Assembly (NCBI GenBank): GCA_037443365.1
Contig: JBBIOM010000001.1
Coordinates: 1,693 to 65,692, forward strand
Direction: 5' to 3'
Origin: Armatimonadota bacterium
GTDB lineage: Bacteria; Sysuimicrobiota; Sysuimicrobiia; Sysuimicrobiales; Humicultoraceae
DNA length: 64,000 bases
Shown: positions 3 through 51,107 of the stretch, in pieces
How positions within the stretch are numbered: the stretch's first letter is position 1
Layout of the letters: every line of letters starts with the position of its first letter
Program-made: the position numbers and the translations under genes
The notes under the pieces: model-generated
Database searches by the model: none
Seen by the model: the letters and a program-made list of their open reading frames with translations, nothing else
What the model was told of the DNA's origin: nothing

Positions 3-1115
3 CACGCGGCCCTGGTGTCGGCAGGCAAGAGCCTGGCCAGCGGGGACGATGTGCGCGTCGTCTACGGGACGGAAACGCCGGAAACGCGCTGGGTGGAACT
101 CGACCGCTTCAACTTCAACTTCGCGGCTGCTCCCACCGCCTGGAACACCACGTCCGTGCGGCTGTGGTTCCCCCTGCAGGCACCGATCGCCGCGGGTGCT
201 TCGGACAGCAACTACTACCTCCACTACGGCGACCTGTCGGCCGGCCCTCCGCCGGCGAACGGCGACCACGTCTTCCTCGACTACGAGAGCGGCGCGGTGC
301 TCGACGGATGGGGCCGGCGCGACTCGCTGGCAGGAACGAAGTCGGCCTCGACAGACGGGTTCTTCTTCAACGCCACCTCTGGGACCGGCTACCGCGAGTT
401 CAGCAAGAACGCCCCCCACGGCGATGTAGAGATCATCTGGGGCTTCCGAACCGAAGGGCCGGCGGCGCAGAGCAGCACGCGGCACATAGTCGGGATGAGC
501 GCCCGGCGCAGCGACGCCGGCGCGGGATACAGGGTCGCGGCCGGCGAGAGCACAAACACCCTGCTGCGGATCAGCAGGCAGACGGGCTGGGCTGCCACGG
601 GAACCAACCTCACCCCAACCTTTGCGGTGGTCCTCACTGTCGGAGCCGACTACTACGGGCGGTTCTCGCTGGTCGGATCGCAGCTGCGAGCCAAGGTGTG
701 GCTGGCATCGGTTGCAGAGCCCGCATGGGTGATTACGATGACAGATGCGACTTATGCCTCCGGGGCGCACTATGCCCAGGCGGACGGGTCCGCCGCCTCT
801 GCTGCCTCGCCCCAAAACCACCGCCACCGGCACATCATCCTACGGCGCCGGGTGGCTGATCCCGAGCCCACAACGGCCCTGGCCGCCGAGGAAGCCCCTC
901 CTCCGGCAGGCCCCTGGCTGCCCCTGGCCGGCCCGTTCAGGGCCATGAGCGTCCTGTGCTTCAACGCCGCGGGCGGCGCCGTGGCGTGCCCGTCGGCCCC
1001 TGGTCCATCCGCCGCCGCGGTCAGGTCGGTGCAGGTAGCGCTGACCGCCATGGATCCAACAGGAGAGGTCGCCGACATTGTGGTCACCTCGCGCGCCTAC
1101 CGGCAGGCACCCTAG
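3..1115 (+). CDS. Pilin-cluster protein with DUF2341-like and beta-sandwich domains (5' end lies before the window)
   Basis: Frame is open to the window edge. 'SLASGDDVRVVY..LWFPLQAPIAAGASDSNYYLHYG' resembles DUF2341. C-terminus 'VRSVQVALTA..VVTSRAYRQ' resembles minor pilin tails. Next gene is PilX-like. Confidence 0.6.
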   Translation, partial: HAALVSAGKSLASGDDVRVVYGTETPETRWVELDRFNFNFAAAPTAWNTTSVRLWFPLQAPIAAGASDSNYYLHYGDLSAGPPPANGDHVFLDYESGAVLDGWGRRDSLAGTKSASTDGFFFNATSGTGYREFSKNAPHGDVEIIWGFRTEGPAAQSSTRHIVGMSARRSDAGAGYRVAAGESTNTLLRISRQTGWAATGTNLTPTFAVVLTVGADYYGRFSLVGSQLRAKVWLASVAEPAWVITMTDATYASGAHYAQADGSAASAASPQNHRHRHIILRRRVADPEPTTALAAEEAPPPAGPWLPLAGPFRAMSVLCFNAAGGAVACPSAPGPSAAAVRSVQVALTAMDPTGEVADIVVTSRAYRQAP

Positions 1116-1680
1116 CCCTGCTCCTGCTGCAAGGGCCCGGCCGTCTGCGGTCCCTTTCTGGCGCGCCCGCAGGGGAGAGGCGGGCGTCGCCTTCGTCATG
1201 GCGATCGTGGTGACCATGATCCTGGCCCTGATTGTGGCCGGGGTCGCGCAGCTGATGATAGCCGAGGCGGATATGGGACGCCTGACGCGCCTGGATGCGG
1301 AGGCGCAGTACCTGGCCCAGGCAGGCCTCGAGCACCAGATCTACCGGCTCAAGGCAGACAAGACGGCCGCGGCGGTTCCCTACACCAACTACCCTGCCAG
1401 CGCAGACCAGCGCTCCTGGTTCGTCACGTCGCGACGTTGCCTGCTTCCAGCGCTGGACGACTGCACGAGCAACGTCGCCGCCCGGCGCTGGTGCATCCTG
1501 TCCACAGGGGAGATCCGCAGGTACAACCCCGACGCCACGTACGAGGTTCTTCAGACCCGCACGATCCGTGCCGAGGTGGACATCACCTACGGCGGGGCCA
1601 GTCCGCTCTACGGAACCCCCACGCGAGTCACGGTGCTCCGGTTCGAGGAAGACCTGCGCGCCTCACTCACCTGTCCCTGA
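1078..1680 (+). CDS. PilX/PulK-like minor pilin (start codon uncertain)
   Basis: Class III signal-like 'RRGEAG|VAFVMAIVVTMILALIVAG' followed by 'AQYLAQAGLE', typical of the PilX N-terminal region. Confidence 0.7.
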   Translation: MWSPRAPTGRHPSPAPAARARPSAVPFWRARRGEAGVAFVMAIVVTMILALIVAGVAQLMIAEADMGRLTRLDAEAQYLAQAGLEHQIYRLKADKTAAAVPYTNYPASADQRSWFVTSRRCLLPALDDCTSNVAARRWCILSTGEIRRYNPDATYEVLQTRTIRAEVDITYGGASPLYGTPTRVTVLRFEEDLRASLTCP

Positions 1681-17511: not shown

Positions 17512-19965
17512 CTACTCCGTGACCACGTTCACCAGACGCCCGGCCACGACGATCACGTCGGCCACGCTCCTGCCCGCCAGGAACTGACGGAGGCGCTGGC
17601 TGGACAAGGCGACCTCGCGGGCCGCCGCGTCGCTGATACCCGCGTCCACCTGAACCCGGTCGCGCACCCGCCCATCCACCTGCAGCACGAGCGTCACCTG
17701 CGCTGCGGTGGCCTTGACCGGGTCAAAGGATGGCCAGGCCTGGGTGTGCACGCTGTAGGAACCCCCCAGGTGCTCGACCCACAGCTCCTCCGAGATGTGC
17801 GGGCACAGCGGCGCAAGCAGCAGCACCAGTGTCCGCAGCGCGTCGCGCCACAAGGACGTCTGTGCGACCGGAGAGCTCCTGGCTCGCTGAAGGGTGTTGG
17901 CGTACTCCATCAGGGCCGCGATGGCGGTGTTGAACCTGAAGCCCTCCAGCTGCTCACTCACGCGCCTGATCGTGTTGTGCATCCAGTACTCCAGCTCGGA
18001 CGCCCCAACGGCCTCGGCTCGGGGCGCGTCCGCCTCCTGCGACGGCTCCGTCACCAGGCCCCAGACACGCGCCAGGAAGCGCGAGAGCCCCTCGATCCCC
18101 CGGCTGTTCCATGGGCCTCCCTCGTCCCACGGTCCGATGAACATGAGGTACGCCCGCAGCACATCGGCGCCGTACTGGCGCACCAGGTCGTCGGGATTGA
18201 CCACGTTGCCCCTGGACTTGCTCATCCGGTAGCCATCGGGTCCCAGGATGATCCCTTGGTTGAAGAGCCGCGTCATCGGCTCGTCGAAGGCCACCAGGCC
18301 CATGTCGCGCATCACCTTGGTCCAGAATCGCGTGTAGAGGAGGTGCATCACCGCGTGCTCGATGCCGCCGGTGTACTGGTCCACAGGCAGCCAGTACTCG
18401 CCCTGCTCTGGATCAAAGGGGCCATCCCCGAAGTCAGGGCTGATGTACCGGTACTGGTACCATGACGAGTCCACAAAAGTGTCCATGGTGTCGGTCTCGC
18501 GCCTGGCAGGCCTGCCGCAGCGCGGGCAGGATGTGTTCAGGAAGCCGGCGTGGTAGGTGAGCGGCGACTCGCCCGTGGGGCGAAACGCCGCGTCCTCGGG
18601 CAGGATCACCGGTAGGTGCTCGTAGGGCACCGGCACCACGGAGCAGGCGTCGCAGTAGACCACCGGTATGGGCGTGCCCCAGTAGCGTTGCCGGCTGATC
18701 AGCCAGTCGTGCAGGCGGTAGTTCACCTTGCGCTCTCCGATGCCGCGCTCTACCATCGCGTCGGCGATGCGTTGCCAGCCCTCGGCCGACGACAAGCCGT
18801 CGAACGGGCCGGAGTTGACCATCGTGCCCTCTTCCAGGTAGGCGGCGGACAGAGGCCCTCCGTCCCAGCCTGGCGGCGCCACGACCACCGGGATCGGCAG
18901 GGCGTACTTCCGCGCGAACTCGAAGTCGCGCGCGTCGTGGGCCGGAACGCCCTGAATCGCGCCGGTGCCGTAGGTGCTCAACACGTAGTCCGCGACGAAG
19001 ATGGGCACGGCCTGGTCGCTCATCGGGTTGGTGGCGTAGGCGCCCAAGAAGACCCCATCGCGCTCGCGCTCGGTCGAGAGGCGCTCGATGTCGGACTGGC
19101 GCGCTGCCTTGAACTTGTAGGCCTCGACCTCGGCGCGGCGGTCGGGCGTGGTCAGGTGGTCCACAAGCGGGTGCTCGGGGGCGAGCACGCAGAAGGTCAT
19201 CCCGTAGACGGTGTCGGGCCTGGTCGTGAACACCCTGAACTCCAGGCCCGAATGGTCCCTGATCGGGATGGCGAACTCGACGCCCCCGCTGCGGCCGATC
19301 CAGTTGGTCTGCAGGGCTCGGACGCGCTCGGGCCACTCGATCTTGGAGAAGTCCAGCAACTCCTCGGCGTAGGCGGTGATCCTCAGGAACCACTGCTCCA
19401 GGTTCTTCTTGATCACCGGCGTCCCGCACCGCTCGCACACCCGATCGTCGCCGACCACCTGCTCGCGGGCAAGCGTGGTGTTGTCCTTCGGGCACCAGTC
19501 CACCGGCGCCAGCGCCCTGTAGGCCAGGCCCCGCTCGAGCATCTTGAGGAAGAACCACTGGTTCCACCTGTAGTACCCGGGGTCGCAGGTCACCACCTCG
19601 CGCGTCCAGTCCCACATCGCGCCCATGGAGCGGAGCTGGCGCCGGATGACCTCGATGTTGCCCATGGTCCAGCGATAGGGGTGAATGCCACGCTCGATGG
19701 CCGCGTTCTCGGCCGGGAGCCCGAACGCGTCGAATCCCATGGGGAGCATCACGTTGAAGCCCCGCATCCGCCTGTACCGCGCGGCGGCGTCCGAGGGCGC
19801 CATCGCGTACCAGTGCCCGATGTGGAGGTAGTCGCCCGACGGATAGGGGTACATCGTGAGGAAGTAGAACTTGGGCCTCGCGTCGCCGTCGGGCGCGTGG
19901 TACAGGCCGTCCGCTTCCCATCGCGCCTGCCACTTGTGCTCGATCCTGGTGGTATCGTAGCGCAT
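17512..19965 (-). CDS. leuS: Leucine--tRNA ligase
   Basis: 'MYPYPSGDYLHIGH', 'FTTRPDT', 'WLISRQRYWG' and 'RMSKS'. ATG at 19965 follows GGAGG. Confidence 0.97.
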   Translation of the reverse strand: MRYDTTRIEHKWQARWEADGLYHAPDGDARPKFYFLTMYPYPSGDYLHIGHWYAMAPSDAAARYRRMRGFNVMLPMGFDAFGLPAENAAIERGIHPYRWTMGNIEVIRRQLRSMGAMWDWTREVVTCDPGYYRWNQWFFLKMLERGLAYRALAPVDWCPKDNTTLAREQVVGDDRVCERCGTPVIKKNLEQWFLRITAYAEELLDFSKIEWPERVRALQTNWIGRSGGVEFAIPIRDHSGLEFRVFTTRPDTVYGMTFCVLAPEHPLVDHLTTPDRRAEVEAYKFKAARQSDIERLSTERERDGVFLGAYATNPMSDQAVPIFVADYVLSTYGTGAIQGVPAHDARDFEFARKYALPIPVVVAPPGWDGGPLSAAYLEEGTMVNSGPFDGLSSAEGWQRIADAMVERGIGERKVNYRLHDWLISRQRYWGTPIPVVYCDACSVVPVPYEHLPVILPEDAAFRPTGESPLTYHAGFLNTSCPRCGRPARRETDTMDTFVDSSWYQYRYISPDFGDGPFDPEQGEYWLPVDQYTGGIEHAVMHLLYTRFWTKVMRDMGLVAFDEPMTRLFNQGIILGPDGYRMSKSRGNVVNPDDLVRQYGADVLRAYLMFIGPWDEGGPWNSRGIEGLSRFLARVWGLVTEPSQEADAPRAEAVGASELEYWMHNTIRRVSEQLEGFRFNTAIAALMEYANTLQRARSSPVAQTSLWRDALRTLVLLLAPLCPHISEELWVEHLGGSYSVHTQAWPSFDPVKATAAQVTLVLQVDGRVRDRVQVDAGISDAAAREVALSSQRLRQFLAGRSVADVIVVAGRLVNVVTE

Positions 19966-19975
19966 AGGTCCGCCT

Positions 19976-20328
19976 CCAGAAAGGCAACGCCGCCCTCGTC
20001 CACAGGGACGAAGGCGGCCTCCGCGGTACCACCCCGGTTGACAGTTGCGCAACTGCCCACGCAGTTGGTGGAGCAGGCGGGAATTGAACCCGCGACCTCC
20101 TCTACGCCAAAGAGGCGCTCTCCCCCTGAGCTACTGCCCCGCGCACCTGTCCGCTTGAGCCCTTATCGCGGGCAAACGGTGGAGACTACGGATCCGCACC
20201 GGACCCCTCGCCTCCACGGCTCCCGGACGAGTTCGGCAGACCCGCCGTTCGGGTTGCACCTGCCCCCGAATCTCTTGTGCGCCTCCTGGCGCCGGTCGGT
20301 CCGCTGCCTACTGCTTCCGGTCTTCGCC
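19976..20328 (-). promoter_or_regulatory. Leucine T-box riboswitch (specifier CUC) of leuS
   Basis: Stem I reads GGCGAAGACCGG/AGTA...AGAGA...GGTGCAA...GAA-CTC-GT-CCGGGAGCC, with specifier CTC at 20229-20231. Stem II is GTGGAG..CTCCAC followed by CGTT. T-box sequence AACCGGGGTGGTACCGCG at 20022-20039. Terminator stem GCCGCCTTCGTCC/GGACGAGGGCGGC. Confidence 0.93.
20066..20140 (-). tRNA. tRNA-Ala(GGC), embedded in the leuS T-box leader
   Basis: 75-nt cloverleaf: acceptor GGGGCAG/CTGCTCC with G3.U70, D arm GCTC/GAGC, anticodon arm CCTCT-TTGGCGT-AGAGG, T arm GCGGG-TTCAATT-CCCGC, A73 and encoded CCA. Confidence 0.93.
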
Positions 20329-20362
20329 ACCCTGTCTGACGCGCCGTGCACCTAACAGGGCG

Positions 20363-20391
20363 ATTATATAGACCCGGCACAAGGGGGTCAA
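20363..20391 (-). promoter_or_regulatory. Sigma-70-type promoter for the T-box/tRNA/leuS transcript
   Basis: Minus strand TTGACC-N17-TATAAT. Confidence 0.8.
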
Positions 20392-20410
20392 GCCGATTGC
20401 CCGAGGCGCG

Positions 20411-20902
20411 CTATAGCTTGTAGCCGAAGCGCCGCAGCAGATCCTTGCGCCAGGAGATCTCCGTGTCGTCTTCGACGCCCAGCGGCTTGAACCCGTCCAG
20501 AACACCCAGGATCCCACGCTGATCTCCCTCTTCGGCAACTACCACCTGGATGGGGTTGGCCGTGGCCGCAAACAACCGCACTACTTCGGGACAGGCCCGC
20601 ACCGCGGGAAGGACGTTGATGGGGAAGAACCCCTCGCCCAGCACGATGATGAAGGCATGGCCGCAGCCCAGCGCAGCCGCGTTCCTCACCGCCAGATCAA
20701 CCAAGCCCTGATCCGTGCCTGACTTGCGGATCAGGCGCTTGCCGCTGGCCTCCGAGAAGGCAAGGCCGAACTTGATGCCCGGCACCGCGGTAACCAGGGC
20801 CTCGTGGAGATCCTCGACCGTCTTGATGAAGTGCGACTGGCCCAGGATGACATTCAGGCTCTCCGGCTTCTCGATGGGCACAAGATGGATGTCCATGGGC
20901 AT
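20411..20902 (-). CDS. Adenosine-specific kinase family protein (DUF355)
   Basis: 'NVILGQSHFIKTVEDLHE', 'FGLAFSEASGKRL' and 'ATANP..GILGVLDG'. Confidence 0.88.
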   Translation of the reverse strand: MPMDIHLVPIEKPESLNVILGQSHFIKTVEDLHEALVTAVPGIKFGLAFSEASGKRLIRKSGTDQGLVDLAVRNAAALGCGHAFIIVLGEGFFPINVLPAVRACPEVVRLFAATANPIQVVVAEEGDQRGILGVLDGFKPLGVEDDTEISWRKDLLRRFGYKL

Positions 20903-51033: not shown

Positions 51034-51107
51034 TGGCTGGGGGAGGAGGATTCGAACCCCCGCTAACGGGTCCAGAGCCCGTCGTCCTACCGCTAGACGA
51101 TCCCCCA
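51034..51107 (-). tRNA. tRNA-Gln(CTG)
   Basis: TGGGGGA/TCCCCCA acceptor (U1-A72), anticodon arm ACGGG-CTCTGGA-CCCGT, T loop TTCGAAT, G73 and CCA. Confidence 0.95.

Follow-up and report, generated by a model that had tools for sequence, protein, structure and literature searches.

Can a riboswitch sense one amino acid while the gene of a transfer RNA (tRNA) for another lies inside its charge-sensing helix? The question is raised by the leader of leuS in a 64,000-nucleotide (nt) stretch of contig JBBIOM010000001.1 from an Armatimonadota bacterium (assembly GCA_037443365.1), here called the window, in which all leader features lie on the minus strand. The leader contains a leucine (CUC) T-box, and a complete gene for tRNA-Ala(GGC), non-cognate to the switch, occupies the loop of T-box Stem III. 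The reading favoured here, with a probability of about three in four, is a class-I transcriptional Leu T-box whose Stem III loop is the sole tRNA-Ala(GGC) gene of the genome, the leader acting both as riboswitch and as tRNA-Ala precursor in an arrangement of ancient date. The nesting had been proposed from the letters of the stretch and its open reading frames (ORFs) alone (hereafter the original prediction), and every element and coordinate listed there, i.e., promoter, T-box, specifier, tRNA, two enclosing 11-mers and antiterminator, proved correct.

The tRNA-Ala(GGC) gene in the Stem III loop

Stem III of T-boxes is defined by a flanking motif, RRRNG before it and AA after it, and by its position directly before helix A1 of the antiterminator; the helix, variable in stem and loop, is indispensable to the discriminator domain, which senses charging (available parts of PMC7583486 and PMC7778990). 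The order in the window is AAGCG, GACAGGUGCGC, tRNA and spacer, GCGCAACUGUC, AA, and then CCGGGGUGGUACC (Table 1). GACAGGUGCGC and GCGCAACUGUC form 10 pairs over their 11 positions, the exception being a G.A mismatch, and the minimum free energy fold of 20156-20036 consists of a cloverleaf and a small hairpin closed by this helix. The spacer behind the tRNA varies among relatives in sequence and in length (16-47 nt).

Flanks and pairing were counted in a MAFFT alignment of 126 non-identical nested loci, which starts 60 nt ahead of the tRNA and runs up to the T-box motif. The RRRNG string is found in 118 of the 126 rows, AA in 123 and both in 116. The counted structure, named by hand, comprises six basal Stem III pairs and the tRNA cloverleaf. 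All six basal pairs change on both sides, 88.2% of their cells being paired, with the compensatory types GACAG/CUGUC, GAUAG/CUAUC, GACCG/CGGUC, GGUAG/CUACC and GGCAA/UUGCC; by eye, unpaired cells belong mostly to rows misplaced by MAFFT. For the structure as a whole 97.3% of cells are paired versus 78.7% in column shuffles, none of 500 shuffles being as high. Sliding the 3' partners by 1-3 columns lowers pairing to 41-51%, a comparison in which the structure is favoured because it was taken from the first alignment row; the distinct compensatory types are independent of that. An unanchored search, in which the spacer was matched against the 60 nt ahead of the tRNA for the best contiguous helix, gave a mean of 7.1 pairs (5.5-5.7 in permuted and shuffled controls) and was replaced by the anchored alignment and pair count because it had too much freedom, and unconstrained RNAduplex often lengthened the helix by spurious pairings. 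The enclosing helix is Stem III, and chance is excluded, since the nested arrangement is conserved and the helix covaries.

One local feature of the window stands apart from this picture. The spacer sequence GGCAGUU can pair with AACUGUC into a hairpin, GGCAGUU-GCGC-AACUGUC (20040-20060), that competes for the 3' strand of Stem III. It occurs only in the window's genome among the loci inspected, its 5' arm looks like the upstream Stem III strand repeated, and the RF00230 alignment took it as Stem III.

The T-box around the insertion is complete. A targeted search over 551 nt with the Rfam model RF00230 matches the leader, Stem I included, from the first to the last model position at 57.1 bits (E 7e-12). 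The gathering score, 93, is missed because an insertion of about 110 nt has to be opened between the Stem IIA/B region and Stem III. The default Rfam scan of the whole window reported two tRNAs and no T-box; absence of a T-box was rejected as a conclusion, because the insertion had pushed the score below the threshold. The other tRNA of the window is tRNA-Gln(CUG) (51034-51107, minus strand). The decoding domain has Stem I with K-turn AGUA, AGAGA bulge and distal loop, the specifier loop, Stem II and the Stem IIA/B region. The Leu specifier agrees with the regulated gene downstream, leuS, whose product is 77-92% identical in its N-terminal part to LeuS of related loci. The UGGU of the T-box bulge is complementary to the A73-CCA end of the cognate tRNA-Leu(GAG), which is encoded on contig C6 of the same genome, and the 5' strand of the terminator shares sequence with the 3' part of the antiterminator, making the two mutually exclusive. 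A GCC (Ala) triplet directly before GAA-CUC was considered as a second specifier and rejected: it belongs to Stem I, as its paired 3' strand, and by eye covaries with the GGC after AGUA (GCU with G.U in loci L008, L019 and L021; CCU/AGG in L024).

The inserted element has the properties of an ordinary tRNA. ARAGORN calls it tRNA-Ala(GGC), and Rfam RF00005 gives 66.5 bits against a cut-off of 29. The G3.U70 pair and A73 are the identity elements of tRNA-Ala; both are present in the window, together with an encoded CCA, and among the nested loci G3.U70 is found in 126/126, A73 in 133/133 and an encoded CCA in 112/133. The alignment of 126 loci shows no variation in the anticodon columns and a pairing of 98.8-100% in the four arms, with many compensatory changes. 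Position -1 is U in 89 of 128 loci; U is the nucleotide preferred there by bacterial RNase P, and the genome has a type-A RNase P RNA gene (264.9 bits).

The host genome (G000) is a draft of 2.22 Mb in 69 contigs, with 68.8% G+C and 97.7% completeness. Its 41 tRNAs include one tRNA-Ala(GGC), which is the nested gene, so that the sole-copy status anticipated for it held in this assembly, and one tRNA-Ala(CGC), at a contig end; tRNA-Ala(UGC) was not found in the assembly and is probably unassembled along with the ribosomal RNA operon. Among the 77 Ala codons of leuS, GCC is used 39 times, GCG 35, GCA 3 and GCU 0. The nested tRNA is thus, as far as gene content and conservation can tell, a working gene and apparently an essential one. 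The genome also codes for tRNA-Sec and a transfer-messenger RNA (contig C47).

Inspection by eye of 15 T-box motif hits gave about ten other T-boxes in the genome, all with ordinary Stem III, the leuS leader being the only one that contains a tRNA. These other hits lie on contigs C1, C3, C4, C10, C13, C14, C15, C21 and C32, and two near-identical T-boxes with a CUC-like context are on C3 and C13. Pairing in cis between the ACCA of the nested tRNA and the UGGU bulge is compatible with the sequence; it was rejected by reasoning, since processing would first have to free the 3' end, which lies at the far end of Stem III.

The promoter in front of the leader agrees with the consensus at 11 of 12 positions, and TTGAC-N17-TATAAT is also visible in genus-level relatives. 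A scan for sigma-70-type consensus sites found no second promoter-like site on either strand of 19700-20700, where shuffles average 0.1; the interval between tRNA and antiterminator is included, in line with the single promoter of the original prediction.

Table 1. Features of the leuS leader in the window (positions in the 64,000-nt stretch).
Feature	Position	Strand	Remarks
sigma-70-type promoter	20391-20363	minus	-35 TTGACC 20391-20386, 17-nt spacer, -10 TATAAT 20368-20363
full T-box leader	20333-20001	minus	Rfam RF00230, model 1-219 end to end
T-box decoding domain	20333-20157	minus	RF00230 alignment, model 1 to about 148
specifier triplet CUC (Leu)	20231-20229	minus	loop context GAA-CUC-G, 20234-20228
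RRRNG purine string AAGCG	20156-20152	minus	directly 5' of Stem III
Stem III 5' strand GACAGGUGCGC	20151-20141	minus	
tRNA-Ala(GGC), 75 nt	20140-20066	minus	anticodon 20108-20106; in Stem III loop
spacer with small hairpin	20065-20051	minus	between tRNA 3' end and Stem III 3' strand
Stem III 3' strand GCGCAACUGUC	20050-20040	minus	
conserved AA	20039-20038	minus	directly 3' of Stem III
antiterminator	20035-20004	minus	helix A1, T-box bulge, helix A2; RF00230 model about 186-216
T-box sequence GGGGUGGUACCGCG	20035-20022	minus	
T-box bulge UGGUACC	20031-20025	minus	UGGU (20031-20028) pairs with ACCA of a tRNA
terminator hairpin, 13 base pairs	20018-19989, with tail to 19979	minus	U-rich tail weak
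Shine-Dalgarno GGAGG	19977-19973	minus	
leuS	19977-17512 (Shine-Dalgarno-to-gene span)	minus	ATG 19965-19963; 817 amino acids

Distribution and natural variants

The survey of relatives called for by the original prediction supports it. In a sample of 30 loci from 60 relatives of the same order, the tRNA is followed by the T-box motif in 25, with the enclosing helix covarying as described above; L022 is cut by a contig end, the same junction being visible, and the four loci of family f4 (L027-L030) have a stand-alone tRNA-Ala(GGC) with its own TATAAT. In a sample of 94 genomes of the phylum, the pattern described below occurs in 38, two of its sites (G009:C74 and G054:C22) being by their sequence not this locus, and the nested arrangement is present in at least 36. 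By family, G000 excluded, the pattern is found in 25/33 genomes of f1, 10/22 of f2, 0/23 of f4, 1/12 of f5 (the doubtful G054) and 1/1 of f7. Two unpublished genomes enter these counts, G024 (locus L013) as one alignment row and one genome in the order and phylum tallies, and G015 as one genome in the order tally; no statement hangs on either alone.

The generic pattern joins a T-arm, GGTTCRANTCC, over 30-60 nt to GGTGGNACCRCG, and was run on one genome each of 185,579 species, yielding at least 119 stretches. Among the matches listed, tRNA-Ala(GGC) stands at the pattern site in 108 of 119, and 100 of these 108 have leuS or ilvE downstream: leuS within 350 nt in 67, leuS behind another ORF in 24, and ilvE first in 9. 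The other eight gave no leuS or ilvE hit, five of them having less than 600 nt of downstream sequence. Eight of the remaining 11 listed matches were scanned with Rfam, and none is a T-box with a nested tRNA. Other tRNAs at the pattern site were rejected for want of a T-box match (L067, Thr; L094, Pro; L134, Arg), as were L053, L133, L140 and L147, and L064 is a T-box without tRNA. L051 and L079, with the pattern at or close to the end of the stored locus and with leuS downstream, have no tRNA call and stood outside the Rfam check, from which the archaeal record L076 was also left out. Every confirmed T-box-nested tRNA among the matches listed is tRNA-Ala(GGC) with leuS or ilvE downstream.

The T-box itself is kept along with the tRNA. 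A simple expression finds the GAA-CUC context in 109 of 133 nested loci; the other 24 comprise 13 with other triplets, which look like misfires of the expression, eight without a match and three with short upstream sequence. Terminators and the UGGU bulge are also retained. All eight representative nested loci from other lineages give full-length RF00230 matches spanning the tRNA, and five exceed the gathering score (100.7-133.2 bits), the insertion notwithstanding.

Record labels, taken as recorded, are from Chloroflexota (Thermomicrobiales, Ktedonobacteria, Limnocylindria, Anaerolineae, Caldilineae, Thermoflexales) and Bacillota (Syntrophomonadaceae, Peptococcaceae, Thermoanaerobacteraceae, Thermacetogeniaceae, Desulfotruncus, Desulfitispora), with a few from further phyla. 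Candidatus Fervidifonticultor, a genus placed by the NCBI taxonomy in Candidatus Sysuimicrobiota, is also among them, and LeuS of the window and IlvE of relatives are about 80% identical to proteins of Fervidifonticultor records. Judged by these matches the arrangement is widespread, in more than a hundred species; it is most simply regarded as ancient and as having arisen once.

The gene behind the leader varies. A leuS hit was obtained in 25 related loci. The gene begins about 1 kb past the leader in 22 of them (L002-L021, L023, L025 and L026 listed), and directly behind it only in the window, L022 and L024. In the examined locus L004 the intervening gene (566-1492, minus strand) encodes a class-IV (branched-chain) aminotransferase, ilvE. 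In L042 and L055 a GNAT acetyltransferase is first according to Pfam, the first ORFs of L034, L058 and L114 being alike; most records of this type are labelled Limnocylindria or Chloroflexota. An AMP-binding, acyl-CoA-synthetase-like enzyme is first in L045 and L121, which belong to Desulfotruncus alcoholivorax and one Bacillota metagenome-assembled genome. In L007 (G007, about 1750-1850) the distal half of Stem I is gone and AGUAGGCAGCGG runs into CCGAACUCG, either by true deletion or as an assembly artefact.

Three kinds of natural variants bear on the function of the nested gene. Two genomes of genus g3 in the same family, G019 (L151) and G009 (L152), share the promoter, the Leu(CUC) T-box, ilvE and leuS, but their Stem III is a plain hairpin devoid of tRNA; the tRNA-Ala(GGC) gene of G009 is found instead some 85 nt upstream of the T-box promoter, on the same strand. 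Because these genomes run the same Leu T-box without it, sensing does not need the tRNA. In un-nested relatives, a DNA search with the window tRNA was dropped after it missed the G009 copy that ARAGORN finds. In the second kind, three family-f4 genomes (L153-L155) have neither a T-box motif nor a tRNA within 1.5 kb upstream of leuS.

The third kind has a second tRNA gene. Among the 116 nested loci with at least 700 nt of upstream sequence, 16, all with Chloroflexota-type labels, have tRNA-Ala(CGC) on the same strand 194-335 nt upstream of the nested tRNA, and no other kind of tRNA occurs at that place. In L082, L066, L068 and L112 a strong promoter before tRNA-Ala(CGC) is the only one, Stem I begins about 15-25 nt past the 3' end of that tRNA, and the 193-229 nt between the two tRNAs are T-box throughout. 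From this layout, the decoding domain of these four loci is the spacer of a predicted two-gene tRNA-Ala operon. A common transcript is hard to avoid in such loci, which would show that the presence of tRNA processing sites on either side is compatible with T-box domains. L085 has a promoter-like site of its own, situated after tRNA-Ala(CGC) and before Stem I.

Transcription, processing and rival readings

Under the favoured reading, transcription from one promoter would give one transcript. Stem I would capture tRNA-Leu(GAG) while the polymerase goes on to make Stem II, then the 5' strand of Stem III and then tRNA-Ala; the latter would fold independently, and the 3' strand of Stem III would then close the helix, placing the RRRNG and AA purines beside the nascent T-box bulge. 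An uncharged tRNA-Leu 3' end would lock the antiterminator and permit transcription of leuS (ilvE-leuS in relatives), and otherwise the terminator would form. A folded tRNA would be tolerated at the tip of Stem III because this tip is variable and points outwards, leaving the helix base and its flanking purines undisturbed. The decision would thus be made by tRNA-Leu during transcription, and precede tRNA processing or be indifferent to it.

RNase P at the 5' end and 3' nucleases would mature tRNA-Ala. Since the tRNA lies upstream of the terminator, terminated and read-through leaders would both yield its precursor, which fits the proposal that leaders are recycled into tRNA-Ala in either state of the switch. 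The related proposal that the supply of tRNA-Ala(GGC) is tied to the leuS promoter fits likewise with the sole copy, the absence of a second promoter-like site and GCC as the leading Ala codon of leuS; both proposals are kept here as predictions. A leader that is made constitutively and mostly discarded may be a cheap site for a tRNA gene, and the arrangement could persist through carrying an essential tRNA gene together with an intact riboswitch that does not need the tRNA for sensing.

Public RNA data would fit a precursor that is still unprocessed. The share of the sampled words does not exceed 0.10 in any public run, and the matches are all assembled contigs of relatives. A metatranscriptome contig of 335 nt covers 20024-20328 with 25 substitutions and 12 gaps and crosses both tRNA junctions; one of 204 nt from a second study covers 20065-20228 and extends 40 nt further. 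With DNA carry-over possible, these bridging contigs are a weak hint. High depth over 20068-20098 was rejected as a signal of expression, being the conserved T-arm of many organisms, and stretches lacking cover were given no weight either.

A closer entanglement of the two functions would follow if the nested tRNA were itself active in regulation, by delaying folding, by processing that resets the 5' end or stability of the messenger RNA (mRNA), or by leaving a two-piece riboswitch, thereby coupling leuS and ilvE to tRNA maturation. It adds about 90-120 nt between sensor and decision point, the Stem III strands abut the tRNA ends in many loci (pairing reaches -1 in the window and -2 in L016), and the arrangement is kept in records labelled as at least three phyla. 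Pairing up against the tRNA ends could slow cleavage by RNase P, and in Bacillus subtilis thrS endonucleolytic processing of the T-box leader stabilises the mRNA. Yet nothing in the sequence requires such a role, the spacer is unconserved, canonical leuS T-boxes lack the tRNA, and so do same-family genomes with the same T-box and operon; regulation by the tRNA is accordingly thought unlikely. The original prediction went further, in that excision would sever the sensor from the antiterminator, whereas a cut by RNase P at +1 alone would not part them, because the 10-11 base pairs of Stem III join both pieces. Rather unlikely, too, is a composite of tRNA-Ala operon and riboswitch in which excision couples tRNA maturation to leucine sensing and leaves a two-piece T-box joined through Stem III or a re-ended ilvE/leuS mRNA of altered stability; some Chloroflexota would then also excise tRNA-Ala(CGC) from directly before Stem I, and the response of the switch would be set by when the tRNA is processed and not by tRNA-Leu charging alone.

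Looser relations between tRNA and switch fare worse. That they are separate transcription units with a merely positional overlap could be argued from the stand-alone tRNA with its own TATAAT in family f4, from the site in L085, which indicates that promoters move in this locus, and from the restriction of the promoter scan to the sigma-70 consensus. No promoter-like site was found by it from Stem II to the tRNA or from the tRNA to the antiterminator, however, and the tRNA flanks are covarying Stem III strands with no space to spare (on the 5' side, 0-5 nt in most loci); without read-through the antiterminator would never join Stem I, yet both T-box halves are conserved, and the RNA-library contigs that bridge the junctions point, weakly, in the same direction. 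Separate units are for these reasons considered very unlikely. A T-box decaying into a relic, so that the region is in effect a long tRNA-Ala leader and leuS is expressed constitutively by read-through, would agree with the low RF00230 score, the weak U-tract of the terminator and the truncated Stem I of L007, but it is hardly compatible with a window in which all conserved T-box elements are present, with CUC specifier, RRRNG/AA, UGGU bulge and terminators conserved over 126-133 loci, or with five of eight relatives scoring above the cut-off; it is held to be highly improbable. The probability is next to negligible that the element is a tRNA-like structural module, such as a decoy or protein-binding handle, unused in translation. 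Such structures do act as processing or binding signals in other systems, e.g., mascRNA and viral tRNA-like structures, but here the gene is the only tRNA-Ala(GGC) of a genome with GCC as the top Ala codon in leuS, its GGC anticodon, G3.U70 and A73 are invariant, its four arms pair through compensatory changes, and the same tRNA is an ordinary stand-alone gene in relatives.

The class-I Leu T-box with a tRNA-Ala gene as its Stem III loop therefore remains the preferred reading, and several points weigh against it. The RF00230 score of the window is below the gathering score, and the U-tract of its terminator is weak. The sole-copy status of tRNA-Ala(GGC) rests on a draft genome, the promoter scan sees only sigma-70-type consensus sites, and the generic pattern is blind to nested tRNAs with other T-loops, spacings or positions. 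The RNA contigs, being from relatives, show neither starts nor ends nor strand, and may derive from DNA. Finally, Stem III of Bacillota is short, with 5-8 A+U-rich pairs and duplex energies of about -6 to -9 kcal/mol, and for these the argument that it holds processed halves together is weak.

Known systems

Riboswitches are usually seen as self-contained leaders, whereas here an indispensable sensing helix carries an apparently essential non-cognate tRNA gene, in an arrangement that is stable over more than a hundred species, their records bearing the labels Chloroflexota, Bacillota or Candidatus Sysuimicrobiota. Such loci may serve as a natural system for comparing the speed of the T-box decision with RNase P processing of the same nascent RNA, for the bulk that the discriminator domain tolerates, and for the use of constitutive, mostly terminated leaders as tRNA precursors. 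Natural controls exist in T-boxes without tRNA, with the tRNA before the promoter, and with a second tRNA-Ala before Stem I, and several carriers are cultured, among them Thermosyntropha lipolytica DSM 11003, Desulfotruncus alcoholivorax DSM 16058, Desulfitispora alkaliphila DSM 22410 and Tengunoibacter tsumagoiensis Uno3, as identified by the public records. For annotation, default Rfam use misses the T-box of the window and similar leaders below the cut-off, and pipelines would list tRNA and leader as unrelated features.

No description of a tRNA gene inside a T-box was found in the full-text literature, a search that left supplementary tables uncovered and an earlier mention possible. The available parts of a 2008 comparative study (PMC2494555) and of TBDB (PMC7778990) make no mention of one. 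The original prediction alluded to tRNAs in clostridial alaS T-box leaders, which was not borne out in the available part of PMC4695836 or in literature searches.

The canonical class-I T-box (RF00230), e.g., that of Bacillota leuS, shares with the window Stem I with a CUC specifier, Stem II and IIA/B, a Stem III flanked by RRRNG and AA, the complementarity of UGGU and A73-CCA, mutually exclusive antiterminator and terminator, and leuS downstream. It differs in the loop of Stem III, which in the window is a 75-nt tRNA gene of other specificity plus spacer. Insertions as such have been described, including Stem Sa in staphylococcal glyS and others in Stem III or Helix A2 of translational T-boxes (available parts of PMC7583486 and PMC9177973), and a 2020 review speaks of puzzling insertions in all domains, of unknown structure and function, the term "tRNA gene" being absent from the available part of its text (PMC7583486). 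In these lineage-specific insertions, as in the present one, the periphery of the discriminator domain accommodates extra RNA; they are simple hairpins, whereas that of the window is a complete tRNA with a cellular function.

The nearest printed precedent is GOLLD RNA, which holds an embedded tRNA (available part of a 2026 review, PMC12990946). Here as there, a complete tRNA lies within a large structured RNA and the same question of excision and its timing arises, but GOLLD has no riboswitch, its function is unknown, and its tRNA is placed in a single-stranded junction and not in the loop of a sensing helix.

Two other systems share single aspects with the leuS leader. In the thrU-tyrU-glyT-thrT-tufB operon of Escherichia coli, tRNAs are co-transcribed with a downstream translation-factor gene and freed by RNase P and 3' nucleases. 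As predicted for the window, these tRNAs share the promoter of a downstream mRNA gene, yet they merely precede the mRNA, while the tRNA of the window interrupts a regulatory fold that must assemble around it. Intervening sequences of 23S rRNA are excised by RNase III without re-ligation and discarded. They are likewise inserted at the tip of a conserved helix, and cutting leaves two pieces held together by that helix; the excised piece is thrown away in their case, whereas in the leuS leader it would be a useful tRNA.

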